Positions 1-11,030 of a stretch of DNA of 11,030 bases are shown here, one piece after another. Below the pieces are notes generated by a model. That model ran no database searches, was not told where the DNA came from, and saw only the letters and a list, made by a program, of their open reading frames with translations. A program made the translations under genes and the position numbers. Position 1 is the first letter of the stretch. The number at the start of each line of letters is the position of its first letter. The stretch is from Nanobdellota archaeon (lineage in GTDB: Archaea > Nanobdellota > Nanobdellia > Woesearchaeales > JAHWHD01): assembly GCA_034722435.1 (NCBI GenBank), contig JAYENX010000059.1:1-11030 (forward strand). The letters run 5' to 3'.

Positions 1-28
1 GAATGAATATAATGAATTGGTGAAATAA
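1..28 (+). CDS. Possible 3' end of an upstream gene (...NEYNELVK*), truncated by the window edge
   Basis: Frame starting at base 2 reads aat gaa tat aat gaa ttg gtg aaa taa and is followed by an AT-rich intergenic stretch. Too short to verify. Confidence 0.3.
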
Positions 29-43
29 ATAATAGGCATTATT

Positions 44-55
44 AAAGTTTAAATA
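44..55 (+). promoter_or_regulatory. Putative archaeal TATA box upstream of the methyltransferase gene
   Basis: AAAGTTTAAATA (TTTAAATA at 48-55) lies about 40 nt upstream of ATG 94. The region is very AT-rich, so a chance match is possible. Confidence 0.35.
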
Positions 56-93
56 AATAATTAATAAAGATAAATAATTATGAGTAGTGAACC

Positions 94-942
94 ATGAAAA
101 TATATAATAAAGAGATAAATGAAGAGAACCTTGTTCAGTTATTGCACAAGATTAAGAATAAACCTATTGTGTATGTAGATGATTCTTTTCTACTTAAGCA
201 TGTGAAGTCGTATATTGAACAGAATGTTGCTTGTATTGATTTGATTAATAATGGGAATGTGAAAAATAAAAAGATTAAAGATCTTATCAAGCACGTGCGT
301 GCTAAAGTTAGAAAAGTGTACGGTCTTTTCCAGGATGATAGGATTCAGAAACGTGATTCTTTACTTGATGATTATGAGATGAATAAAAAACGCGAGTCGG
401 TAGTTAAGATATTGCAGTTGCACCTATCAACAAAAGAACGGATAAGTTATATGGAGGAGTTGTATGATAAAATATTTTCTGTAACTGGAAAGCCTAAGTC
501 TGTTTTAGATTTAGGAGCAGGTCTTAACCCTCTTACATATCCTTGGATGAATATAAATTCGAAATATTATGCGGTAGAGTTTAACAAAGGTGATGTAGAT
601 TTTATTAATCGTTTTTTTAAGATTGAGAAAATTAAAGGAGAGGCTGTGAAGTTTGATCTCCTTATAGAGTATAGTGAAATTAAGAAGTATAAGGTTGATA
701 TATGTTTTCTCTTTAAAGTATTGGACTCTCTGGAAAGAGTTCAGAGGTATATATCGTATGAGATTATGAGGGCTGTAGATGCTAAGTTTATAGTAGTAAG
801 TTTTCCTCTTCGGACTGTGACTGGAAGGACAATGAGGCAGGAGCAAAGAAATTGGTTTGAGAAGTTATTGGAGAGGCTTGATTTTAAATACGAAACTTTT
901 TCTTTTAAGAATGAAATATTTTATGTTTGTAGTAATAAGTAA
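94..942 (+). CDS. 16S rRNA (guanine(1405)-N7)-methyltransferase, FmrO/ArmA/RmtB/Sgm (aminoglycoside-resistance methyltransferase) family
   Basis: Family motifs appear in the right order: HLSTKERI (H-x-S-T-x-E-R), LYDKIF, SVLDLGAGLNPL (SAM-binding motif I; RmtB has VLDIACGLNPL), DICFLFKVLDSLE (D-x-x-L-x-F-K-x-L-x-x-L-E), VVSFPLRTVTGR (VSFPTRSLGGR), NWFE, and C-terminal NEIFYV (ELIY). Length of 282 aa fits the family. Confidence 0.88.
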   Translation: MKIYNKEINEENLVQLLHKIKNKPIVYVDDSFLLKHVKSYIEQNVACIDLINNGNVKNKKIKDLIKHVRAKVRKVYGLFQDDRIQKRDSLLDDYEMNKKRESVVKILQLHLSTKERISYMEELYDKIFSVTGKPKSVLDLGAGLNPLTYPWMNINSKYYAVEFNKGDVDFINRFFKIEKIKGEAVKFDLLIEYSEIKKYKVDICFLFKVLDSLERVQRYISYEIMRAVDAKFIVVSFPLRTVTGRTMRQEQRNWFEKLLERLDFKYETFSFKNEIFYVCSNK

Positions 943-943
943 A

Positions 944-951
944 TTATATAA
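944..951 (+). promoter_or_regulatory. Putative archaeal TATA box for a leaderless transcript of the sigma-70-like gene
   Basis: TTATATAA lies 25-32 nt upstream of ATG 976 in a 33-nt intergenic gap. There is no Shine-Dalgarno sequence before the ATG (TTTTTATTT-ATG). Confidence 0.45.
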
Positions 952-975
952 ATAAGTTTCTTTCGATTTTTATTT

Positions 976-3456
976 ATGGTATCTCCAAGGGCTTATGCTG
1001 AGCCTGTGAGTGGTAGAAAATACGTTCCTATGATTGATTTAGTAAAAATGCTAGATGAGCATTCAACTTCTATAGCAACTATTTGTGATGATTCTGATGT
1101 TGTTATTTATAAACAACCTGGTAGGAGGGATAGGTTAGTTGATGACGTGGATGTTTCTCGAGTTTCGTCTTTAGTGCAAAAAAGGCAGGAGATGAGGGAT
1201 AAATATGTCTCTGTTACAAAGATTGCAAAGGATAGAGGTAGGGATTTAAAGTATGTGAAACGTCTATGTAAAGATGCAAAGGTTGAAATTAAACGGTTAG
1301 GTAAGGGTAATTCTGTTAAGTATGGTTATGTTGCAAATTCTGATATTTCAAAATTAGATGCAGTTGAAGATGAAAGGGTGAAGATTGATAGGGGCTTTCA
1401 ATCATTATTTTATGTAGCTGATCAGTTAAATGTTGATCATAAAACATTAAGGCGAAAGTGTGTTAAAAATAGTATAGAAATACATAAGTTTAATGTTAAG
1501 TCTGGAGATTATATTTCTAATGGTGATGTGTGCGCTTTAGGTGGTGCTAATGTTGTGCATGAAAATATGCGGACGGGGTCAAGGTTTTTTGGGAAGTCTT
1601 CTTATAGTTATAAAATGTTAGGTTATCAAACTTTGAATTCTTTGGTGAGATCTTGGGGTGCAGTGTTTAATGTTTTGAAAAGTTATCTTGGACCTCTTAA
1701 TATTGATTTTAAGCAGAAAGGGAAAGTTTTGTATATTTCTGATAGACGGGTTGAAGATTTGCGTAAGTTGCATGATAAAGAAGAGAGAATAAAAAAAACG
1801 TGTAGGTCTTACGATTCTTTGGCTGTTGAATTGGGTTTGGGTAGGAAGAAAATAGTTAATCATTCTAAAAAATTTAATCTTAAAATTGAGAAGCTTGTAA
1901 ATGGGCGTGAGTTTTTAACGCCTGAATCTGTTTCTGCTCTTAAATTCTTTTTCAATGATTTGATGATATTTAATTCTCTTGCTGATGAGTTTGGGACTCA
2001 TTATAATTCTCTTGAAAATATTTGTGGCTTGGCAGGGATACCTGTGTTTAGTATTAAAAACTTTAAAGGAAGTTACATTTTAAAATCGCATGCTGATTTG
2101 TTAAGACAGTCTTGGGTTCCTTGTAAAGGTAATAAGGCTGGTTTTTTACAGGATGCTGCTAGTAGAGTTCTTTGTTTGGATTCTATTGTCGATTATGATG
2201 ATTTTTATTTTGATGAACTCAAGAGTCTTTACAGAAAAGAGTTTGATGTTGAAGCTCTGGCTGTCCCTGTTACGCCTGTTTTCGAGTTCGTTACGTCCGA
2301 GGTTGAATCTGAAGTTAGAAAGAAAAGGGTTGAATCAAGTGAAGTTAAATTATGTAAAATAGTTCAATCTAAAAAGTTGAGGGATGTTAATTTAGATATT
2401 GAATCTGTTGAAGAAGAAAAGAGGCTGGTGTTACGTTCTAAAGATTTGAATAAAAAAAGTCGAAGGTCTGTGAAAAGGAAGGGTTCTTCAAAGAAAAGGA
2501 ATTCAAAGAAACGGTTGAAAGAATTAAAAAGACCTGTAGAGCGTCCTGATTATAATCGGGCTTTTGATGTTAAAGCGAGAAATTTTGTTACAAGGTCATA
2601 TGTTGCGGATGTTAGAAAACAGAAGATTCCTACAATTGAAGAAGAACGAAATTTGGCAATGGCAGTTAAAGTTAAAGGTTCAGAAAGTGAAGAAGGGAAA
2701 AAGCTTGTGAGTTCAAATACTCCTTTTGCGATGAATATCGCGAGTCAGTTTTTTAGAAAGTTCAGACTTAATACGAATACTAAAGAGCATGCAACATATA
2801 CTTTGATGGATCTTGTTCAGGAGGCTAATATTGGTCTTTTGAATGCTGTGCCTAAATTTGATAGGGGTAAAGGAGTGAAGTTTGTTACATACGCGAAATG
2901 GTGGATAAATAAGAGATTGATTGCATATGGGGCTGAACATTATGATGTTATACGTCTTCCTAAGCGTAAGGGTGTTGAGGTGGTTAGGCTTGAGAATGCT
3001 GTTCGAAAGTTAAGAGCGCAAGGTGAAGTGGTAACTGAAGAAGTTCTTTCTGTATCTATGGGGATGCATAAGGATGAAGTGAAGGATTTGATGAAAGCTT
3101 CTAGAGCGAGAAAGTTGAAGTCTTTAGATTGTTTGGTTAAGAAAGGTGATTTTAAGTCTGCCACTTTTGGGGATACGATTCCTGATGAATCAATGAATGT
3201 TTATGATGTTGTTGAGGGGAAGAATAAGAATGAAGCTCTATTGAAAGTAGTTGAAAGTTTAGGTAATAAAAAACAGGAACTTGTAATGAGATTAAAATGG
3301 GGTCTTGATGATGGTATAATTAAAACTTTGCAGGAAGTAGGTGATGTGATGGGACTTACAAGAGAACGTATCAGGCAGATAGAGGTTGAAGCGCTTAAAA
3401 AACTTAGGCATCCGTCAAGAGTTCGTGGTTTAAGAGATTTTTATGAATCAGAGTGA
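976..3456 (+). CDS. RpoD-like sigma-70 family protein with a long N-terminal extension of tandem HTH-like repeats
   Basis: aa ~540-826 align by eye with RpoD. Region 1.2: RSYVADVRKQKIPTIEEERNLA. Region 2: LVSSN..., MDLVQEANIGLLNAVPKFDRGKGVKFVTYAKWWI...IRLP. Region 3: TEEVLSVSMGM...SLD...FGDTIPD. Region 4: RLKWGLDDGIIKTLQEVGDVMGLTRERIRQIEVEALKKLRHPSR. aa 16-380 contain about six degenerate 50-55-aa repeats. Confidence 0.9.
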   Translation: MVSPRAYAEPVSGRKYVPMIDLVKMLDEHSTSIATICDDSDVVIYKQPGRRDRLVDDVDVSRVSSLVQKRQEMRDKYVSVTKIAKDRGRDLKYVKRLCKDAKVEIKRLGKGNSVKYGYVANSDISKLDAVEDERVKIDRGFQSLFYVADQLNVDHKTLRRKCVKNSIEIHKFNVKSGDYISNGDVCALGGANVVHENMRTGSRFFGKSSYSYKMLGYQTLNSLVRSWGAVFNVLKSYLGPLNIDFKQKGKVLYISDRRVEDLRKLHDKEERIKKTCRSYDSLAVELGLGRKKIVNHSKKFNLKIEKLVNGREFLTPESVSALKFFFNDLMIFNSLADEFGTHYNSLENICGLAGIPVFSIKNFKGSYILKSHADLLRQSWVPCKGNKAGFLQDAASRVLCLDSIVDYDDFYFDELKSLYRKEFDVEALAVPVTPVFEFVTSEVESEVRKKRVESSEVKLCKIVQSKKLRDVNLDIESVEEEKRLVLRSKDLNKKSRRSVKRKGSSKKRNSKKRLKELKRPVERPDYNRAFDVKARNFVTRSYVADVRKQKIPTIEEERNLAMAVKVKGSESEEGKKLVSSNTPFAMNIASQFFRKFRLNTNTKEHATYTLMDLVQEANIGLLNAVPKFDRGKGVKFVTYAKWWINKRLIAYGAEHYDVIRLPKRKGVEVVRLENAVRKLRAQGEVVTEEVLSVSMGMHKDEVKDLMKASRARKLKSLDCLVKKGDFKSATFGDTIPDESMNVYDVVEGKNKNEALLKVVESLGNKKQELVMRLKWGLDDGIIKTLQEVGDVMGLTRERIRQIEVEALKKLRHPSRVRGLRDFYESE
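1021..2115 (+). repeat. About six degenerate protein-level repeats resembling MerR/excisionase-type winged HTH units
   Basis: Units begin at aa 16 (YVPMIDLVKMLDEHSTSIATICDDSDVVIYK), 77 (YVSVTKIAKDRGRDLKYVKRLCKDAKVEIKR), 141 (FQSLFYVADQLNVDHKTLRRKCVKNSIEIHK), 217 (YQTLNSLVRSWGAVFNVLKSYLGPLNIDFKQ), 276 (CRSYDSLAVELGLGRKKIVNHSKKFNLKIEK) and 329 (LMIFNSLADEFGTHYNSLENICGLAGIPVFS). Each is followed by a beta-hairpin-like Y/F-I/L-x-x-x-D/E-V-x-x-L segment. No nucleotide-level repeat is visible. Confidence 0.65.
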
Positions 3457-5139
3457 TTTGACCATGTATGGTCCTTGTTTTTTGTAGCCGTGTTTTTCCC
3501 GGTAATATCCTCTTACTCCGACACCTGAGATAATTACCATCTTTTTCTTTTTATTATCTTTGGCAATCTGTTCAGCCACTCTCAAGAGTTTTTTACCATA
3601 ACCTTTATGTTGGGTGGTGCCTGTTTTTCCTAGAGATGTAGCGATTCCGTAAACGTGAAGTTCTCTTATTAATGCGGAATCTTTTGTAATTTCTGGTCTT
3701 AATGATTGTGATGGAAAACGTAGTCTGCAGAAACCTAGCAGAATATCTTGCTCAGAGTCTTCAGCTGAGATAAAAAATTCTATCCCGTCAGAAGCTTCGT
3801 ATGGTTGAATCTTTATGTTAATATTTTTAGCAAGCTTTTTTTCTCTTCTATATACGTGCCCGGCTTCTCTGCAACGTATGCAACGACATTTAATGTCTAA
3901 AGCTTTACATTCTTTTTCAACATATTGTCTTAGATTAGTTCTGTCAACACCAGCTTCAGTTGCGTAGGTCGGGATATCGCGTTGGACGCGCATGATTCTT
4001 ACATATTCGGGTACGTGTTGTTTCATTTTTGCAATAAGCTTTGCACCTAAACTTGTTGTTAATGGGTTGAACCCTCCTTTTTTCCATAATGAATAAAGTT
4101 TAGATTGTTTAACTACCATGCACGGATATAGTTTTAGCATGTCAGGTTTGAAATCTTGTGATGTGAATAATTTTTTGAAACCTTCTAAATCTTTTTTTGG
4201 TGATGAACTTGGAAGGCCTAACATGTAATGTGCGTTTATTTTGAAACATAGATCTTTTAAAGTTTTGATTGCATCAATAGTTTGTTTAACTGAATGTCCT
4301 CTTTTAATTTGTGTTAAAACATCGTCGTATACTGATTGAACGCCTAATTCTACTCTTGTACAACCAAGTTTTAACATTTGGTTAGCTTCTTTTAAAGTTG
4401 CATAATCTGGGCGAGTTTCAATTGTCATACCAATGCAACGGACTTTTGCTTTTTCGTTTTTTCTTTGTTCAATTTCTAAAGAAGTTTTGTTTTTGGTTTT
4501 TAGTTTTCTTAGTTTTGATTGGATTGATTTTGTTCTTTTAGGGTTTCCGATTTCGCCAGGGAGTTCAAAGAATTTTTTGAATTTTGTTATATTTATTTTT
4601 CCTTTAGAGAAAAACATTGAAGAGAAATCGTTCATTGCTTTGAAACAAAGAGTTACAAATTTGTTTTGGTAAGATGTAGGGAATGCAGGGAATGTACCTC
4701 CCATTATTATTAGTTCAACTTTTTCAGGGACGTGCGCTGTTACTACGTATTGTTCCAGACGGTTAAATATTTGAAGATAGGGGTCGAAGTTGTTTCTTAT
4801 ACCTCTCATCGTGGCAGGTTCTTTACCTGTATAAGATTGTGGAACATTCTTTTTTGTCATTGAAGGGCACATGATGCAAGCGCCGTGTGGACATTTTTGT
4901 GGTTTTGACATTAAAGCTATAGGTGTAACTCCTGATATGGATCTTGTAGGTTTTGTTTGTAGATGTTTAAGCTTATCAAGATCAGTAGGTTTTGCGTGTA
5001 AAAGAATTTCAATATCTGTAGGAATTTTTTTAACTTTAAATTGTTTGCATAACTTTAGTTTAAGTTTTGCAATTTCATCTTTTGAAATTTTCTTTCTTTT
5101 CAGTATGGTAATCAATTCTTTGTAAAATTCTTTTGTCAT
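3448..5139 (-). CDS. elp3: Elp3 tRNA wobble-uridine (U34) carboxymethyltransferase, radical SAM plus GNAT/KAT domains
   Basis: CPHGACIMCP Fe-S motif, QSYTGKEPA, GGTFP, IETRPD, ELGVQS, RGH, HYMLGLP, PDMLKLYP, RVQRDIP, CRCIRCRE, RLRFP, RELHVYG, QHKGYGKKLL, ISGVGVRGYY. Full length at 563 aa. Confidence 0.97.
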   Translation of the reverse strand: MTKEFYKELITILKRKKISKDEIAKLKLKLCKQFKVKKIPTDIEILLHAKPTDLDKLKHLQTKPTRSISGVTPIALMSKPQKCPHGACIMCPSMTKKNVPQSYTGKEPATMRGIRNNFDPYLQIFNRLEQYVVTAHVPEKVELIIMGGTFPAFPTSYQNKFVTLCFKAMNDFSSMFFSKGKINITKFKKFFELPGEIGNPKRTKSIQSKLRKLKTKNKTSLEIEQRKNEKAKVRCIGMTIETRPDYATLKEANQMLKLGCTRVELGVQSVYDDVLTQIKRGHSVKQTIDAIKTLKDLCFKINAHYMLGLPSSSPKKDLEGFKKLFTSQDFKPDMLKLYPCMVVKQSKLYSLWKKGGFNPLTTSLGAKLIAKMKQHVPEYVRIMRVQRDIPTYATEAGVDRTNLRQYVEKECKALDIKCRCIRCREAGHVYRREKKLAKNINIKIQPYEASDGIEFFISAEDSEQDILLGFCRLRFPSQSLRPEITKDSALIRELHVYGIATSLGKTGTTQHKGYGKKLLRVAEQIAKDNKKKKMVIISGVGVRGYYREKHGYKKQGPYMVKSL

Positions 5140-5160
5140 GATGTTGATAAACTGTTCGGT

Positions 5161-5172
5161 ACTTTATAAAGT
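5161..5172 (-). promoter_or_regulatory. Palindromic TATA box (ACTTTATAAAGT), probably the elp3 promoter
   Basis: TTTATAAA core lies 24-31 nt upstream of the elp3 ATG (5139), the spacing expected for a leaderless archaeal transcript. The 12-mer is a perfect palindrome. Confidence 0.55.
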
Positions 5173-5198
5173 TTATTTATGTATGATTTAGGGAAATG

Positions 5199-5243
5199 TT
5201 TATATATTATAAACGCAGAAATTGCTTTAAAAGCTATATATAA
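5199..5243 (+). promoter_or_regulatory. Candidate TATA boxes for the pilin operon
   Basis: TTTATATA at 5199-5206 and TATATATAA at 5235-5243, upstream of the SD at 5272 and ATG 5285. The sequence alone cannot show which one is used. Confidence 0.35.
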
Positions 5244-5271
5244 TTATTATAGTAAGTTTATAGTAAAAAAA

Positions 5272-5277
5272 GGAGGT
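5272..5277 (+). promoter_or_regulatory. Shine-Dalgarno site for pilin 1
   Basis: GGAGGT, 7 nt before ATG 5285. Confidence 0.8.
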
Positions 5278-5284
5278 AGATAAG

Positions 5285-5749
5285 ATGAAAAGAGGTCAAG
5301 CAGCTTTAGAGTTCTTGATGACCTATGGTTGGGTAATTCTAATTGTAATCATTGTCATTGGAGCTTTAGCAGCGTTCGGAGTTTTTGATGTAGGAAGACT
5401 GATTCAGGATAAGTGTTTGTTACCTACTAGTTTGAGTTGTGACGAGTCAGGATATAGTACTGCTGATAGTGGTACGATTAGTTTGGTTTTGTTGAACAGT
5501 TTTGGTAGAGATGTAGAAATATCTGAGCTTACGTTTACAGATAAAGATAGTGATCAGGTATGTACTGAAACTTTTGCAACACCTGTAAAGATTTTAAATC
5601 AGAGGAAAGAACTTATTAATGTGACGAGTTGTAATTTAGCATCTAAATCTGGTAAGTATAGGATGGATATAGATCTTACTTACAAGTTTACAGATGGTCA
5701 GTTAACTAAGGTCTTGAAAGGAGATTTAACTTTGACAGTAGCTGAGTAA
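5285..5749 (+). CDS. Archaeal type IV pilin-like protein 1 (class III signal peptide)
   Basis: MKRG|QAALEFLMTYGWVILIVIIVIGAL: basic leader, G/Q cleavage site, Glu at +5, hydrophobic helix. The ALEFLMTYGW motif is typical of DPANN/euryarchaeal pilins. A Cys pair follows (C...LSC). Confidence 0.88.
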   Translation: MKRGQAALEFLMTYGWVILIVIIVIGALAAFGVFDVGRLIQDKCLLPTSLSCDESGYSTADSGTISLVLLNSFGRDVEISELTFTDKDSDQVCTETFATPVKILNQRKELINVTSCNLASKSGKYRMDIDLTYKFTDGQLTKVLKGDLTLTVAE

Positions 5750-5751
5750 AT

Positions 5752-5779
5752 TATTTTTTATTTTTTTATTTGTTTTTTT
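5752..5779 (+). terminator. Oligo-T tract, possible archaeal intrinsic terminator after pilin 1
   Basis: TTATTTTTTATTTTTTTATTTGTTTTTT immediately follows TAA 5749. Archaeal terminators are oligo-U runs without a required hairpin. Confidence 0.45.
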
Positions 5780-5811
5780 AATATAATATCGTGATATAAA
5801 GGTTTTAAATT

Positions 5812-6264
5812 ATGAAAAAGAGGGGTCAATTTTCATTAGAGTATTTGTTAGTGGTAGGTTTTGCACTAGTTATAATCATCCCTATAACGTATTGGGGGTA
5901 TACTTCTTTTCAAGAAAGTAGAGCTGAGATTAATGTTGCGGCAGTTAATAAGATAGGATATAGTATTGTTAATAATGCTAAAAATGTTTATTATCTTGGC
6001 AAACTTTCTAGGGTTACACTGGAACTTAACTTTCCTGAAGGTATAGAAAATATAACTGTGGTTACTGATGATCAGGTTGATGATTCAGGTGATCCGACCG
6101 GTGAAATATTATATTATTTAGAGATAGATGTTTTTGATTCTGAAATTTTGTTTAGGTCAGATGTACCATTATCTGGCGATTTTATCCCTGTTAATTATAA
6201 TCCGGGTATAAAGAATGTGAAGTTACAATATTTGACAACTGATGTGGAGATTGTGGTAACATGA
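5812..6264 (+). CDS. Archaeal type IV pilin-like protein 2 (class III signal peptide)
   Basis: MKKRG|QFSLEYLLVVGFALVIIIP: G/Q site, Glu at +5, hydrophobic helix. Confidence 0.85.
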   Translation: MKKRGQFSLEYLLVVGFALVIIIPITYWGYTSFQESRAEINVAAVNKIGYSIVNNAKNVYYLGKLSRVTLELNFPEGIENITVVTDDQVDDSGDPTGEILYYLEIDVFDSEILFRSDVPLSGDFIPVNYNPGIKNVKLQYLTTDVEIVVT

Positions 6265-6668
6265 GTAAAGGTCAGGCGGCTGTGGAGTTTGCAATGGGTT
6301 TGTCAATATTGATGACTATCTTTGTTGTTTTTATGGTTGTTATATCGCAGAGAACGGCTGATCAGACTGAAGAGAATTTTCAGTATTTAGTTGAAACTTT
6401 TGAAACGTTTTTAAGGTCTGAGGTTGATACTGCGATATCTGTTGAGGACGGATATGAACGGAATTTTACAGTACCGTACACTTTTTCAGGTGCTAATTAT
6501 TCAATTGAAACTCAACCTGATCCTGGTGCAAGACGTACATTTGTTACTTTGGATTTCGAGGGTGTTGATTATGTATATTCAATTAATATAGAGCATGATA
6601 TAAATGGGGATTTTAAGAAAGGTCTTAATACTATTAAAAAACGTGATGGAGAGGTTTCACTTGTTTAG
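6261..6668 (+). CDS. Archaeal type IV pilin-like protein 3 (class III signal peptide)
   Basis: MSKG|QAAVEFAMGLSILMTIFVVF, Glu at +5. ATGA overlap with the upstream stop suggests translational coupling. Confidence 0.85.
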   Translation: MSKGQAAVEFAMGLSILMTIFVVFMVVISQRTADQTEENFQYLVETFETFLRSEVDTAISVEDGYERNFTVPYTFSGANYSIETQPDPGARRTFVTLDFEGVDYVYSINIEHDINGDFKKGLNTIKKRDGEVSLV

Positions 6669-7056
6669 AAAAGGTCAGGTATTTACAGGGGATTTGTTAG
6701 TAGGTATTATGATATTTTTGATAGCTTTTGGAGGAATAGTAGTATTCCTTTATTATTCAGAGACTAAAGTTGCTCTTCCGAATCTTATAGATGATGGGAA
6801 ACTTGTATCAAGAACTGTTACCGGTGCAGGCGGTGTAGGTGTAAGGGGCGAAGAAGGAGAGATAGATCTTAACAAGTTAAGAGATCTTGGTGAAGATAAT
6901 TATACTGAATTGAAAAATGATCTAGGGGTGAGAAGTGATTTTTGTGTGTTCTTCCTCGATCTTGAGGGTAAAATGGTTGATGTTGGTGGAAAGTATACAA
7001 TCGGTTCAAATGGAACCGAAATTAATGTTTCAGGATTCAAATGTGGTGAGAGGTGA
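6661..7056 (+). CDS. Archaeal pilin-like protein 4 (class III signal peptide, no Glu at +5). Start is probably TTG 6661 or ATG 6646 rather than 6604
   Basis: (M)FRKG|QVFTGDLLVGIMIFLIAFGGIVVFLY. GGAGAGGT sits just upstream of TTG 6661 and gives a short basic leader like the other three pilins. Asp at +6. Confidence 0.75.
   Translation: MFRKGQVFTGDLLVGIMIFLIAFGGIVVFLYYSETKVALPNLIDDGKLVSRTVTGAGGVGVRGEEGEIDLNKLRDLGEDNYTELKNDLGVRSDFCVFFLDLEGKMVDVGGKYTIGSNGTEINVSGFKCGER
7050..7056 (+). promoter_or_regulatory. Shine-Dalgarno site for the fibre gene
   Basis: GAGGTGA, overlapping the upstream TGA stop, 7 nt before ATG 7064. Confidence 0.75.
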
Positions 7057-7063
7057 AGTTTAA

Positions 7064-9091
7064 ATGAAAAGAATAATTATATTTTTTACGGTGGTGTTGT
7101 TGTTAGCAGCTTTTATATCTGCAACAGGTTATACTCCTGATCAGGCAGCGCACGATACTTTATATGCAGATAATATTCGTAGTAAGAGTGCAAATATAGT
7201 AAACGTTGATGATGATTTTTGTGTTAAAGGTCAATGTATATCTACATGGGATGATGTAGATAAATGGGCTGGTGATAAACCAGGAAGTATTTTCTATTTA
7301 GATGGTAATGTTGGTATAGGTACTGAAACTCCTGAGACGTATCTTGATGTATATGGCGGTTTGATACAGACTAATGTCGGGGTTCGTATTAAACAAGGGA
7401 TGTCAATTTCATCACTTGGGTTTTCTGGAGTTAATGGTGGTTATTTATTATTAGAAGATCTTGCTGGTAATGTTGATGTACTTTTAACAGCGGATGGAGA
7501 TTCTACATTTAGTGGGAATGTCGGTATAGGAACTGAAATTCCTACTTCGAAATTAGAGGTAGTTGGTGGTCCGATTAAAGCCACAGGTGGTTTAGTTATG
7601 CAAACTTTAGGGTCACAAGCTGAAGAAGATGCTTTAGCAGCTTTAGAGGGACAAGTATGGTTAAGGACTGATGTTAGTGGTGGTGCTGCTGGTTCAGGTG
7701 CTTCGCTTCCTACATGTGCTGATGGTGAAGTTTTGAAGTATAATGTTGGTAGTAGTGCTTGGGAATGTGCTGTTGATGATGGTGGGAGTACATCTTTATC
7801 TGCTTGTTTAGATGGCGAAATCTTAGTTTATGATGATGTTGCAAGTGATTGGGTTTGTAGTGAATTAAATGCTGCTAGTGAAAGTTTACAAGTACTTTTA
7901 AAACAAGATGTTGTTGGAGATACGGGGGCAACACAAGGTGATGTTGCAAATCCTCGTTTTCAGAGTTTTGAGATTACTGAGTCAATGTTGGAAGAGTGTA
8001 GAGTAGATATTGGAGATAATTATTGTTATTTTAGAAATTATGCTTCGCCTTTTGATGCTGATTTTGCTACTGATCAAAATTCTAGGATTTTTAATTGGCC
8101 TTTTGCTACTAAGAAAGTTTTGGGTAATTGGGTAATATTATTAGGGGGAGATATTGAATCTGTGGATATGAATATTAAAATTGGTGACGGGAGTGTTCGA
8201 TATTTTTCTTCTTCAAAAGGTGATTGGACTGAGGGTTGTCGATGGTGGAATATTAATGATGGTCAGTTTAATGATAGAGACGGTTTTACAATTTGTGATA
8301 GGTCTACTTTGACAGATGGTACTTGGCCAAATTACGGTCTAGACGATACAGGATTGTGGTTAACTATAGATAGACAGGATCCGAGAATTAATCATTTTTC
8401 ATTGATTAAGTTAAGTAATGATACTACTGGTAGTAGTTCAGGTGCTTCACTTCCTACGTGTGCTGATGGTCAAGTTTTGAAGTATAATGTTGGCAATAGT
8501 GCTTGGGAATGTGCTGTTGATGATGGTGGTTTGGGTGCTGATACGGATTGGACAATGTCTGGAAGTGATATGTATTCAGGTGTTACAGGTAATGTTGGAA
8601 TTGGAACTTCTACTCCTTCGTCTAAGTTAGAGGTTAGAGATGGTAATTTTAAGTTATCTGCTTCGACTGATGATCCTGGAGATATTATTTTTGAAGATAG
8701 TGCAAGTGTTCAAAAGGCTAGAATTTGGTCTGAACCTACTGCAGTTTCGGGTTTACATTTGAGTAGCGGGGATAATACTCCTGATATTTCTATTGATTCT
8801 GCGGGTGATGTTCAGGTTTCTAATCAACTTATACTTGGAGGTACTGGAAGAAATAGTTGGCAAACTTTAGATTGTACTTATGTTGAGGGTTACGGTAATC
8901 CTGGAGATTCTACTGCTTATTGTTTGGCAGGATATGTGCGAACTGGTTGTAGTCTTCAATATAATGATTTTTATGGTGGTACTTGGGGTACTGCTGCTCA
9001 ACCGAGTGGTCTGAATGGCTGTGTATGTAGTGATGGAGTATCGTGGCAAGGAGAGGTAAGATGTTATGCTTACTGTTGTAGGTTGATATAA
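7064..9091 (+). CDS. Secreted fibre/adhesin-like protein (tail-fibre-like GNVGIGT repeats, Cys-paired connector repeats, Cys-rich C-terminal tip)
   Basis: Sec-type signal peptide MKRIIIFFTVVLLLAAFISA. Three GNVGIGT-x-x-P-x-x-x-L-[DE]-V-x-x-G motifs (nt 7304, 7514, 8588). Two near-identical SGASLPTCADG[EQ]VLKYNVG[SN]SAWECAVDDGG units plus one degenerate unit. C-terminal domain with 8 Cys ending AYCCRLI. Confidence 0.7.
   Translation: MKRIIIFFTVVLLLAAFISATGYTPDQAAHDTLYADNIRSKSANIVNVDDDFCVKGQCISTWDDVDKWAGDKPGSIFYLDGNVGIGTETPETYLDVYGGLIQTNVGVRIKQGMSISSLGFSGVNGGYLLLEDLAGNVDVLLTADGDSTFSGNVGIGTEIPTSKLEVVGGPIKATGGLVMQTLGSQAEEDALAALEGQVWLRTDVSGGAAGSGASLPTCADGEVLKYNVGSSAWECAVDDGGSTSLSACLDGEILVYDDVASDWVCSELNAASESLQVLLKQDVVGDTGATQGDVANPRFQSFEITESMLEECRVDIGDNYCYFRNYASPFDADFATDQNSRIFNWPFATKKVLGNWVILLGGDIESVDMNIKIGDGSVRYFSSSKGDWTEGCRWWNINDGQFNDRDGFTICDRSTLTDGTWPNYGLDDTGLWLTIDRQDPRINHFSLIKLSNDTTGSSSGASLPTCADGQVLKYNVGNSAWECAVDDGGLGADTDWTMSGSDMYSGVTGNVGIGTSTPSSKLEVRDGNFKLSASTDDPGDIIFEDSASVQKARIWSEPTAVSGLHLSSGDNTPDISIDSAGDVQVSNQLILGGTGRNSWQTLDCTYVEGYGNPGDSTAYCLAGYVRTGCSLQYNDFYGGTWGTAAQPSGLNGCVCSDGVSWQGEVRCYAYCCRLI
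7692..7785 (+). repeat. 94-bp direct repeat, copy 1 (copy 2 at 8436-8529)
   Basis: gttcaggtgcttcgcttcctacatgtgctgatggtgaagttttgaagtataatgttggtagtagtgcttgggaatgtgctgttgatgatggtgg; 89/94 identical to copy 2 by manual comparison. Confidence 0.95.
8436..8529 (+). repeat. 94-bp direct repeat, copy 2
   Basis: Five substitutions relative to copy 1 (g>a, a>g, g>c, t>c, g>a). The copies are 744 bp apart, a multiple of 3. Confidence 0.95.
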
Positions 9092-9462
9092 TGAAGTGGA
9101 TGTTTGTTTTTTTATTCATTATTTTAGCAATAGGGTGTAAACCTTCGTATGATATTACGCCTGAAGTTAATATCGATAAAGTAGTATTGTTAGATGGTGA
9201 AGTTATTACTTCAGAGATAAGTCGCGTTTCTCAAAATGTTGACTTAGATTCGTGTGAAACTCGGTCTTGTATTGATAATGTTGCTTTGCAGTTAGCTATG
9301 AGCAATTATGATATTTCATATTGTGAAATGATAAGTTCAGATTTTATGAAACTTGATGATTGTAAAACTACAGTCATAATGCGAAAAGTAGAAAATACTA
9401 ATGATACTGAGTTTTGTAATGAATTACAGGGAGAATTAAGAGGTGTATGTTTAGGTGAATAA
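9091..9462 (+). CDS. Putative lipoprotein with Cys-pair helical repeats
   Basis: MKWMFVFLFIILAIG|CKPS lipobox-like signal. Repeated D-x-x-x-C-x(10-12)-C units (DLDSC..SC, DISYCEMISSDFMKLDDC, DTEFCNELQGELRGVC). TAATG overlap with the upstream gene. Confidence 0.7.
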   Translation: MKWMFVFLFIILAIGCKPSYDITPEVNIDKVVLLDGEVITSEISRVSQNVDLDSCETRSCIDNVALQLAMSNYDISYCEMISSDFMKLDDCKTTVIMRKVENTNDTEFCNELQGELRGVCLGE

Positions 9463-9799
9463 AATAATTATTGCTCTGGTTGTTGTTGTAGTGGGTGTTT
9501 TAGTAGGGTTTAATATATTTTTATTTACTGAAATTAAAGAAATAAGAGGAGAACAATCTAATGGTTTGCGAGAGATGATTGGCGAGTTTGTAGTTGTAAA
9601 GGATAATTTACTTGTTATTGATAACGGTAATGAAGTCTCTGGAGACTTTTCAAATGCTATGTTTTATGAAGAATTTTCAGGAGAGGGAGTTCATAAGCAG
9701 CATCCAACTATATTTCATTTGAATTTAATACCAGGAGATAATGTTAAATTGATTTTTAATGAAGATGTATTACTTAATGTAATCAAGGTGGTTGGATGA
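9455..9799 (+). CDS. Hypothetical protein with an N-terminal membrane anchor (GTG start)
   Basis: Hydrophobic segment IIIALVVVVVGVLVGFNIFLF. GAGGTG SD upstream. Overlaps both neighbouring genes. Confidence 0.7.
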   Translation: MNKIIIALVVVVVGVLVGFNIFLFTEIKEIRGEQSNGLREMIGEFVVVKDNLLVIDNGNEVSGDFSNAMFYEEFSGEGVHKQHPTIFHLNLIPGDNVKLIFNEDVLLNVIKVVG

Positions 9800-11030
9800 G
9801 GAAGAGTTTGTTGATGGGATTGTGTATGGTGTTTTTAGTAGTTTTAGTAAGTAGTATTGTATCTGCAGAGGTTACTTTGGATGAACAGTGGCAGAAAGTT
9901 AATACTAATACTTTAAATTTAATAGTAGATGATTTAGGAAATACTTATGGTTTGGTGTGGACTTATGATTTTATTGATAATACATATTTCATTGTTAAAT
10001 ATGATGTTGATGGGAATCAATTATGGAATACTCCATTACCTGTTGATTCTAATAATTATTGGACTTCTATGCAGATTGATTCTAATGGTAATGTTTATGT
10101 TGCAGGACGTCGTTCTGATTCTAGATCAATTAGAGCAAAATTAAGTTCAAATGGTGTTCTTGAATGGAAAAAGACGGGTCCTATTAATTTTGAATCTCGA
10201 TTTGTAGTTCAGAATGATGTTCCTTATTTATTAAGGTATAGTCGGGCTTATCCTGTTATTCAACATGCTAGATTTTTTTTAGTAAATTCTGTTACAGGAG
10301 ATGTTAATAAGTTGTTTGATTTTGGATATATTGGTGATGATTTAAGAGTTTATTCTCGTTTTTTAACTGCGACTAACTCTGGGGATTTTTATGCTTTAAA
10401 TTATTTTTATGGTGGGCAAGTAGATAGGTTGATTAAATTTGATGTTGCTGGAAATATTCTATGGGATAATGTTTTAAGCCAGTTAAGCGAATATAGTTTT
10501 TATTCTATGGATGTAGATTCGCAAGATAATGTTTATATTGTGTATGATAATCTTGATGGGGTTAACGGTATGAATCTTGTTAAGTATGATTCAAATGGTA
10601 ACCAGTTATGGGTTAAAGAAAACGTTCTTTCTTCTGCTCATGTTGATGAAAATGATAATATTTTTACTTTTGATATGGACGATAATGTAGAAAAATATAA
10701 TTCTGATGGTGTCTTGTTATGGGAAACTTTAGTGCCTGAACCAATGCTTTCTACTTTGAATGCTTTACAAGCTGGTACTTATAATTATAATATTTATATT
10801 GGTCGAGCCATTTCTCATAATGGAGATTTATTATTTCATACAATAATGCATGATGATTTTGCAGGTTCTTATGTGGAAAGTAATATTATTAAATATAACA
10901 TATTAGGTGAATGTGTTTGTTCAGATACTTTTTGTAATCCTGTTCACGATGGGACAGTATGTGATGGTTGTAATTATGTTGCGGCGCCCGTAGAGGTTTG
11001 TGGTGATGGTGTTGATAATGATTGTGATGG
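9796..11030 (+). CDS. Secreted beta-propeller repeat protein followed by a Cys-rich/MopE-type metal-binding motif; 3'-truncated by the window and absent from the ORF track
   Basis: Manual translation from ATG 9796 (ATGA overlap, GGTGG SD) has no stop through 11030 (411 codons). Signal peptide MRKSLLMGLCMVFLVVLVSSIVSA. Blade motifs KYDVDGNQLW, KLSSNGVLEW, KFDVAGNILW, KYDSNGNQLW, KYNSDGVLLW, paired with IDSNGNVYV, VDSQDNVYI and VDENDNIF. Ends ...EVCGDGVDNDCDG. Confidence 0.9.
   Translation, partial: MRKSLLMGLCMVFLVVLVSSIVSAEVTLDEQWQKVNTNTLNLIVDDLGNTYGLVWTYDFIDNTYFIVKYDVDGNQLWNTPLPVDSNNYWTSMQIDSNGNVYVAGRRSDSRSIRAKLSSNGVLEWKKTGPINFESRFVVQNDVPYLLRYSRAYPVIQHARFFLVNSVTGDVNKLFDFGYIGDDLRVYSRFLTATNSGDFYALNYFYGGQVDRLIKFDVAGNILWDNVLSQLSEYSFYSMDVDSQDNVYIVYDNLDGVNGMNLVKYDSNGNQLWVKENVLSSAHVDENDNIFTFDMDDNVEKYNSDGVLLWETLVPEPMLSTLNALQAGTYNYNIYIGRAISHNGDLLFHTIMHDDFAGSYVESNIIKYNILGECVCSDTFCNPVHDGTVCDGCNYVAAPVEVCGDGVDNDCD

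Follow-up and report, generated by a model that had tools for sequence, protein, structure and literature searches.

Sigma factors and the TBP/TFB pair stand on opposite sides of the textbook divide between bacterial and archaeal or eukaryotic transcription initiation, and the locus described here raises the question of what a sigma-70 protein does in an archaeal cell. It lies in a stretch of 11,030 nucleotides, referred to below as the window (positions 1 to 11,030 of the forward strand of contig JAYENX010000059.1, assembly GCA_034722435.1; Nanobdellota archaeon, Woesearchaeales, JAHWHD01), in which one unbroken reading frame of 2,481 nt (976..3456) encodes a protein of 826 residues. The gene is native to this Woesearchaeota (DPANN) archaeon, and its product is a chimera of a winged helix-turn-helix (wHTH) array, an acidic stretch, a basic linker and a sigma-70 module. 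Sigma-70 genes in DPANN archaea were described earlier as "particularly prevalent in Woesearchaeota" (family fam00359), in a study that ruled out mis-binning, did not find anti-sigma factors and did not settle how the proteins work (Castelle et al., 2021; Front Microbiol 12:660052, PMC8204110). The novelty that a preliminary description of this locus implied for an archaeal sigma factor therefore falls away; a sigma gene in an archaeon is an already published phenomenon, and what is new here is the architectural variant. Rinke et al. are also said to have mentioned "complete sigma factors in Archaea" in 2013.

Only the last ~296 residues of the protein (residues ~531-826) are sigma-like, and the first 530 are other material. 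The elements of the gene, in window coordinates, are:

944..952, plus strand: TATA-box-like TTATATAAA, centred ~28 nt 5′ of the ATG, by direct sequence reading
976..3456, plus strand: the sigma-bearing open reading frame (ORF), 826 residues, running from HTH-repeat array through acidic segment and basic linker to sigma-70 module
1015..2130, plus strand: HTH repeat array, six tandem repeats (residues 14-385)
2131..2325, plus strand: acidic and hydrophobic segment (residues 386-450; net charge −6, pI 4.4)
2326..2565, plus strand: Lys/Arg-rich linker (residues 451-530; net charge +16, pI 10.6)
2566..2700, plus strand: diverged region 1.2-like segment (residues ~531-575), aligning with SigA 96-~140, no Pfam call
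2701..2955, plus strand: sigma region 2 (residues ~576-660), by Pfam Sigma70_r2 and the SigA alignment
2956..3231, plus strand: diverged region 3 with 3.0, 3.1 and 3.2 (residues ~661-752), by contiguous alignment with SigA and RpoD_Cterm, no Pfam r3 call
3232..3447, plus strand: sigma region 4 (residues ~753-824), by Pfam r4; isolated sigma-4 fragments in the PDB align to residues 753-823

The spacing of TTATATAAA from the start codon suggests an archaeal TATA box and a leaderless or near-leaderless mRNA. Codon usage in both halves of the reading frame follows that of the genome (r 0.78-0.79, against 0.19-0.34 in the wrong frames). In bacterial primary sigmas, the place of the basic linker is taken by region 1.1, which is acidic and auto-inhibitory, so the charge here is the opposite. 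Homologue searches with the acidic segment found none, and an Rfam scan of the window gave no match.

Sequence comparison places the C-terminal module in the sigma-70 family, with regions 2 and 4 above curated cut-offs and in the right order (Sigma70_r2, residues 579-649, 43.6 bits, cut-off 24; Sigma70_r4, residues 783-812, 41 bits, cut-off 24.1) and the superfamily model TIGR02937 at 79.2 bits (cut-off 42.9). In a phmmer search of the PDB, residues 532-824 were colinear with residues 96-371 of B. subtilis SigA (7ckq_F, E 2.8e-38), with regions 1.2, 2, 3 and 4 in order, and the module also matched residues 380-612 of E. coli RpoD (4jk1_X). The preliminary description had read these four regions in this order and had quoted DLVQEANIGL and TRERIRQIE...ALKKLRHPSR. 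The order holds and both motifs are in the translation, in a module that is diverged and has no region 1.1 (no Pfam match to PF03979 in the protein). Of the four Pfam models that it proposed as a check, r2 and r4 came out above cut-off, while r1.2 and r3 went uncalled at E<=0.01, though both regions align contiguously with SigA 96-371 and with RpoD_Cterm. NCBIfam models for RpoD, as well as those for SigA and RpoS, span residues ~461-825 end to end (E 1e-44) at scores below every equivalog cut-off; the group 1 models gave 152.9 bits against 572 (NF006666), 145.9 against 354 (TIGR02393, RpoD_Cterm) and 139.7 against 555 (NF004208). The closest relatives of the module are bacterial primary sigmas, at 35-43% identity, and the best match is a bacterial protein with an apparently Chloroflexota-like gene context.

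Conservation was judged against positions that are at least 90% conserved in 35 bacterial primary sigmas. By this measure, 68 of the 111 near-invariant positions in regions 2-4 are kept and 43 are changed. Region 2.2 is retained (DLVQEANIGL), with D612, L613, Q615, E616, N618, G620 and L621 in place, among which we take the equivalents of E. coli D403, Q406, E407 and N409 to lie. The melting aromatics of region 2.3 are likewise retained (TYAKWW; F636, T638, Y639, A640, W642, W643 and I644). Region 4.2 is almost verbatim (TRERIRQIE..ALKKLRHPSR), keeping T795-E803, A806, L807 and K809-R815, and its DNA-reading residues are intact in the SigA alignment and the 35-sigma comparison. By contrast, region 2.1 is altered (NLRLV to NTPFA) and is separated from region 2.2 by an insert of 11 residues (596-606), and region 2.4 is rewritten, with NKRLIAYG where RQAITR.. 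is expected. Presumably the residues equivalent to E. coli R436, Q437, T440 and R441 have become N, K, I and A, the −10 duplex readers being replaced by K646, I649 and A650 at what we take to be the positions of Q437, T440 and R441. In region 3.0, VHM.E has become KRK.V, and the extended −10 readers are replaced by R664 and V, which we assume to correspond to E. coli H455 and E458; regions 3.1, 3.2 and 4.1 are each altered in part. The module carries a net charge of +14, the median for bacterial primary sigmas being 0. The contrast between what was kept (2.2, 2.3 and 4.2) and what was lost (2.1, 2.4 and 3.0) tells which sigma activities remain under selection. Over all 125 near-invariant positions, this copy keeps 73 and 15 other archaeal sigmas keep 56-116, and its two paralogues, which keep 94 and 79, are more canonical, so on its sequence the protein is among the more degenerate archaeal sigmas. 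In a tree of the module its terminal branch measures 2.58 substitutions per site (bacterial median, 0.13). The tree, which carries a long-branch warning for this protein, does not fix its placement and speaks neither for nor against archaeal monophyly.

Self-alignment of the N-terminal part resolves six repeats of ~55-65 residues (14-72, 74-138, 139-200, 212-275, 276-328 and 329-385) that share the consensus Y.S...LA..LG...K.L...C....I.I.K......YI...DV..L, and a hidden Markov model (HMM) of the repeat scores 61-80 bits on each of the six copies. Outside this protein, the array had no sequence homologue in any of the collections searched. The repeat HMM found no further match in its own genome or in the related loci that were fetched, and a related-locus search with the whole protein across the genome contigs found none. 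A search of 5.8 billion proteins returned matches to the sigma module only, with the protein itself forming a cluster of one member on one contig, and a search of 1.84 billion representatives with the N-terminal part returned a single spurious match, P0121, a repetitive surface protein. In an all-against-all comparison that took in other archaeal sigmas, with their N-terminal extensions and the neighbours upstream of them, none matched this N-terminus. Family models gave sub-threshold hits only (DUF7198 at 23 bits, cut-off 27; HTH_58 at E 0.033) and no Pfam cut-off was reached; a weak lead came from the ESM Atlas, where HTH_17 repeat-protein clusters lie at 0.83-0.84.

The fold of the repeat was approached by structure prediction. 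AlphaFold2 (AF2), given residues 1-450 as a single sequence, reached a pLDDT of 36 and was usable for repeat 2 only. With the six repeats supplied as the alignment, repeat 2 was modeled at a pLDDT of 81 as strand-helix-helix-wing-helix. The best structural match to this model is the DNA-binding domain of pSK1 Par on centromere DNA (8csh; Z 7.7, rmsd 1.6 Å over 53 of 53 residues), followed by RacA (Z 6.8; Foldseek TM 0.69/0.67), and the remainder of the top 25 are mostly MerR-family, BldC, TnrA, GlnR and Xis proteins (Z 5.1-5.9). When the repeat profile was compared with the PDB by sequence, Par 8csh was likewise the top match (E 0.064). We accept the modeled repeat as a MerR/Xis-type wHTH and infer homology; because Z values below 8 are middling, this is a fold assignment and not proof of homology. 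MerR-superfamily binders such as Par, RacA, BldC and the excisionases bind repeated DNA sites, some of them as multimers. The predicted strand-helix-helix-wing-helix unit is like those of Par (8csh), RacA (5i41/5i44), BldC (6ama/6amk), Pukovnik Xis (4j2n) and TorI (1z4h). In contrast to these stand-alone proteins, the six units here, which are predicted by analogy to bind DNA, form a single covalent chain that continues into a sigma module. A six-fold MerR/Xis-type wHTH array that has no sequence homologue, fused to a degenerate primary-like sigma, is a new architecture.

That the gene belongs to an archaeal chromosome is apparent from its neighbors and its genome. The genes directly flanking it are:

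94..942, plus strand: FmrO/Rmt-family 16S rRNA (G1405-N7) methyltransferase-like gene, directly upstream (PF07091, 98.5 bits)
3448..5139, minus strand: Elp3, the tRNA U34 cm5 radical-SAM/GNAT enzyme (TIGR01211, 653.8 bits, cut-off 350)

Elp3 and the sigma gene converge, and their 3′ ends overlap tail to tail by 9 nt. The genome (1.30 Mb in 60 contigs, 94.5% complete, 2% estimated contamination, 33% G+C) encodes two TBPs, two TFBs and one split archaeal-type Rpo2/Rpo1 operon, located on another contig, which scores below the bacterial rpoB and rpoC cut-offs. The preliminary description had argued from the flanking genes for an archaeon, and had named as fatal a bacterial or viral contig, an assembly chimeric between sigma and Elp3, or a bacterial-type core RNA polymerase (RNAP) in the genome. 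The archaeal context was borne out by the initiation factors, the split Rpo1/Rpo2 and the Elp3 relatives, and none of the fatal findings was made. A scan of this 94.5% complete genome found no rpoB or rpoC above bacterial cut-offs and no alpha C-terminal domain, and the bacterial core RNAP that a group 1 sigma would serve is thus missing from its own genome; no phage signal was found in the protein or in the neighbors compared. A bacterial or CPR contig mis-binned in the archaeal metagenome-assembled genome (MAG), or a chimeric sigma/Elp3 junction, could be entertained because the contig spans only 25 kb of a 60-contig MAG with some estimated contamination. This explanation is essentially excluded. 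The methyltransferase-sigma-Elp3 order and the tail-to-tail overlap recur in an independent same-genus assembly, almost all of the 80 best Elp3 relatives carry the label Woesearchaeota, Nanoarchaeia, Nanoarchaeota or Pacearchaeota, and the same contig carries pilins with archaeal class-III signals and a pilus ATPase/platform locus. In addition, sigma and TBP genes sit on one molecule in a same-order relative with a single-contig 1.30-Mb genome (TBP at 781 kb, sigma region 2 at 371 kb) and in a three-contig relative (TBP and an 881-residue sigma-like gene on one 572-kb contig). The protein is a DPANN sigma-70 on an archaeal chromosome, with mis-binning excluded.

The same-genus assembly also shows how quickly the gene has changed, in a comparison of synteny and rate that rests on this one genome (contig JAHWHD010000015.1, flagged unpublished). 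There the order is a HEAT-repeat gene, Elp3, a sigma of 578 residues, an Rmt-like methyltransferase, RsmB, sigmas of 312 and 398 residues, and GCD14; the 578-residue sigma is convergent with Elp3, with an overlap of 6 nt, in the same layout as in the window. The flanking genes are 76% (methyltransferase) and 78% (Elp3) identical between the two genomes; for the sigma that they enclose, identity is 31% over 297 residues. The N-termini of the two sigma proteins are not alignable. The positional orthologue has canonical regions 2.1 and 2.4, no 11-residue insert, and an N-terminus of three Xre-type HTH_3 domains (E 1e-31) and an HTH_23. By sequence, then, the slot is filled in both genomes by a protein that joins an HTH array to a sigma, but the HTH modules come from different superfamilies, and the copy described here is the fast-evolving occupant of a genus-specific slot. 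Among 80 Elp3 loci of related archaea, a sigma gene adjoins Elp3 only in the same-genus one, and the slot is young. The same-genus layout also implies that another contig of the genome, carrying GCD14, a sigma of 434 residues and RsmB, adjoins the start of the contig studied here. No sequence overlap was found when the ends of that contig, or of the contig carrying the third sigma, were compared with it, so the adjacency would follow from synteny alone. This arrangement points to a single "sigma island" bordered by four genes for RNA modification (GCD14, RsmB, the Rmt-like methyltransferase and Elp3), in which two sigmas lie between RsmB and GCD14 in the relative and one lies there in this genome. 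In bacteria, the FmrO/Rmt family confers aminoglycoside resistance. The upstream methyltransferase scores 155.9 bits with NF000466 (below its cut-off of 250), and its 76% identity in the same-genus genome marks it as a conserved resident gene.

The protein is one of three sigma-70 homologues in its genome and of many in its lineage. Of 401 high-quality genomes sampled across the phylum, 167 have Sigma70_r2, and every one of these belongs to the same order or class. Often there are several copies, sometimes in tandem, and many of the ORFs are 600-1,760 residues long with the sigma module at the C-terminus. In 28 other archaeal sigma N-termini, region 1.2 was found in 14 (with a non-conserved insert before region 2) and region 1.1 in two, and single members match MarR_2, HTH_17, HTH_23, HTH_24 or HTH_10; one archaeal sigma has an HTH_3 after region 4. 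Judged from these domain matches, extra DNA-binding domains on archaeal sigmas recur but are not universal. One ORF of 1,741 residues (G330:C5) has a full r1.2-r4 module at its extreme C-terminus, preceded by ~1,450 residues with no Pfam match. The 881-residue protein of the three-contig relative (G030:C1:115981-118626, a near-complete genome) carries part of region 2 (positions 1-45 of the 71 in the profile) together with a region 4, behind a long N-terminal extension that is unrelated to the array. Of the paralogues in the genome itself, the most canonical is one of 516 residues (C56:57410-58960, minus strand) with all four Pfam sigma regions (r1.2-r4), which shares its 59-kb contig with a TFB and lies ~5 kb from eIF-6; the other, of 434 residues (C9:16114-17418, minus strand), lies between RsmB and the GCD14-type tRNA methyltransferase. 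Upstream of the 516-residue sigma, an ORF cut by the contig end has a TGA that overlaps the sigma ATG (ATGA), a weak MerR_1 match (E 0.013) and HTH-like patterns by eye. It was considered as the counterpart of the gene in the matching position of the relative, and the two proved unrelated, the relative's gene being RsmB.

Like the DPANN homologues already described, this sigma gene lies on a Woesearchaeota chromosome that also encodes TBP, TFB and an archaeal RNAP, with no known anti-sigma factor; unlike them, it is fused to a six-fold wHTH array with no sequence homologue. With bacterial group 1 sigmas (SigA 7ckq_F, RpoD 4jk1_X) it shares the colinear 1.2-2-3-4 order and the kept 2.2, 2.3 aromatics and 4.2. 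It differs from them in the missing region 1.1, the basic module, scores far under the equivalog cut-offs, the altered 2.1, 2.4, 3.0, 3.1 and 4.1, the 11-residue insert and a genome with no bacterial core RNAP.

On present evidence we lean, at a little less than an even chance, towards the protein being a fast-evolving regulator of transcription in the archaeal cell that binds DNA sequence-specifically. In this reading the HTH array would recognize an extended DNA site, probably made of repeats, in the manner of Par, RacA, BldC and Xis proteins; a −35-like hexamer would be the target of region 4.2, and region 2 may hold single-stranded or distorted DNA. The protein could act alone, or could also tether the archaeal RNAP via the retained 2.2 helix; because regions 2.1, 2.4, 3.0 and 4.1 have drifted, an RNAP-independent mode would be more likely for this copy. 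A stand-alone function is favored by the six wHTH modules, the basic linker, the missing region 1.1, the intact region 4.2 and the basic sigma module. The HTH array of another class in the positional orthologue and the HTH additions on a few other archaeal sigmas count for a DNA binder, and the changed invariant positions, the long branch and the 31% identity count for loosened holoenzyme constraints. Several points weigh against this regulator. The retained 2.2 residues and melting aromatics would be expected if a coiled-coil partner and strand opening mattered, and some of the basic charge may come from the preference for Lys in an AT-rich genome. The HTH assignment depends on a model whose alignment had six rows and whose structural matches stayed below Z 8, at Foldseek E values of at least 0.065. 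A search for repeated DNA targets in the window and the genome gave no convincing candidate. No excess of −35/−10-type sites was found upstream of genes: TTGACA-N16-18-TATAAT upstream of 1,109 genes matched at 10 or more of 12 positions 113 times in the sense and 117 times in shuffled sequence, and at 11 or more 13 versus 11 times, in a test of low power for a small regulon. What the analysis shows directly is the gene, its domains, the fold of the repeat, the archaeal host and the fast evolution; DNA binding, targets and regulatory role are inferred from these.

The alternatives differ in what the sigma module is thought to touch. It could be an alternative or auxiliary initiation factor for the archaeal RNAP, with region 2.2 docked on the Rpo1 clamp coiled coil, so that RNAP would be brought to promoters picked by region 4.2 and the HTH array, or DNA opening would be helped there; we regard this as the likeliest of the alternatives, though less likely than not. 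The 2.2 motif D-L-x-Q-E-x-N-x-G-L is the best-kept part both here and in 15 other archaeal sigmas (D in 15, E in 15 and N in 13 of the 15), the melting residues Y..WW are retained in this protein as in other archaeal sigmas, and the family is common in the class, frequently with several copies per genome, and includes many members that have lost almost none of the invariant positions (up to 116 of 125 kept). Around its tip, moreover, the coiled coil of the archaeal clamp, a homologue of the bacterial beta′ coiled coil, is one that we take to resemble E. coli beta′ in sequence. However, that coiled coil (D235-H274 of Rpo1) does not vary among 29 genomes of the order, whether or not they have a sigma, and thus gives no sign of co-adaptation, and in archaeal initiation the clamp coiled-coil surface is used, and the region occupied, by TFB and TFE. 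To our knowledge, the archaeal RNAP has no flap-tip helix for region 4. The lost 2.1, the insert beside 2.2, the altered 3.0, 3.2 and 4.1 and the missing excess of sigma-70-type promoters speak against it as well. Predicted complexes of Rpo1N 1-420 with the sigma module (residues 530-826) scored 0.31, 0.33 and 0.31 against a mark of 0.32; run without controls, they were counted neither way. Among the three mechanisms offered in the preliminary description, the HTH array and the basic linker have thus strengthened the stand-alone binder, the case for docking on the archaeal RNAP has neither gained nor lost, and a factor aimed at the RNAP of a bacterial partner or host has gained nothing. The last is very improbable. 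The kinship of the module with bacterial primary sigmas can be put on its side, while the N-terminus is unlike an export signal, the protein is large with six DNA-binding modules, and the −10 duplex readers and region 2.1 are altered. We know of no demonstrated bacterial host for this lineage.

A different origin for the rapid change in this slot would be conflict with viruses or hosts, the gene being cargo or a remnant of a mobile element, virus or defense island. This we consider improbable. The variability of the slot, with its confinement to one same-genus Elp3 locus, its different N-terminal HTH classes beside a diverged sigma and its unequal number of neighboring copies, would fit such turnover, and rpoS-like genes have been reported on DPANN viruses or prophages (2025; PMC12647753). 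The protein also resembles MzaA of the MZA anti-phage system (NF041931, PDLC02203), a long, N-terminally extended sigma-70-family protein with which the sigma module here aligns (E 9e-27 with PADLOC, 3.8e-38 with NCBIfam). However, the match is to the generic sigma module (residues 609-824 in PADLOC, with none on two other window proteins scanned) at 131.8 bits against a cut-off of 800; the N-terminal part is unmatched, the neighborhood holds no MzaB-E and the host is archaeal. PHROG models gave no match on the N-terminal 530 residues or on the methyltransferase and pilin neighbors, and the protein is not nearer to phage sigmas than to bacterial ones; it is flanked by housekeeping genes for RNA modification, and its codon usage is native. 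Slightly less probable still is that the gene came from bacteria by horizontal transfer and is now decaying without a function, a reading for which the very long branch, the many lost invariant positions, the lack of a close homologue and the singleton cluster could be cited. Against decay, a frame of 2,481 nt is far beyond what we would expect by chance at 33% G+C, codon usage is native in both halves, the losses are patterned, with 2.2, 2.3 and 4.2 kept almost verbatim, the six repeats share a consensus and a confidently predicted fold, and a promoter-like TATA box is present.

The rest of the contig (25.3 kb) carries, besides Elp3, four prepilins, two T2SSF-type platform genes and a T2SSE ATPase. 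The four tandem prepilin genes (window 5285-7056, plus strand) have class-III signal peptides (MKRGQ/A, MKKRGQ/F, MSKGQ/A and FRKGQ/V) and are followed, to 11028, by genes for secreted or membrane proteins of no recognized family; the two T2SSF-type genes and the ATPase lie at ~21.5-25 kb. Together the prepilin and T2SSF/T2SSE genes look like an archaeal type-IV-pilus-like locus. Between them are proteins of 519 and 1,317 residues (contig positions 11931-13490 and 15929-19882) with Cu-binding_MopE motifs in up to four stretches (E 2.9e-35). GC skew in the window is ~+0.4 over plus-strand genes and ~0 over the minus-strand Elp3, a purine loading of the coding strand. Elsewhere in the genome, a 70-bp tandem repeat of 3.5 copies with 99% matches lies at C8:43053-43294.

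It has been known for some years that sigma genes persist, commonly in more than one copy, in a large class of archaea. The natural fusion of a sigma module to a DNA-binding array argues that DNA targeting through extra HTH modules is part of the function, and the different HTH class in the same slot of the sister genome points to a modular, fast-changing specificity. One reading that would join these features, a long shot in our estimation, is that sigma has been repurposed as a modular recruiter for the archaeal RNAP, with region 2.2 gripping the Rpo1 clamp and interchangeable HTH arrays picking the targets; if so, there would be a TBP/TFB-independent or TFB-assisting initiation route in an archaeon. 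If the retained 2.2 helix does bind the archaeal clamp, the outcome would be a hybrid initiation route, and if it does not, a general transcription factor would have been recycled into an ordinary regulator.

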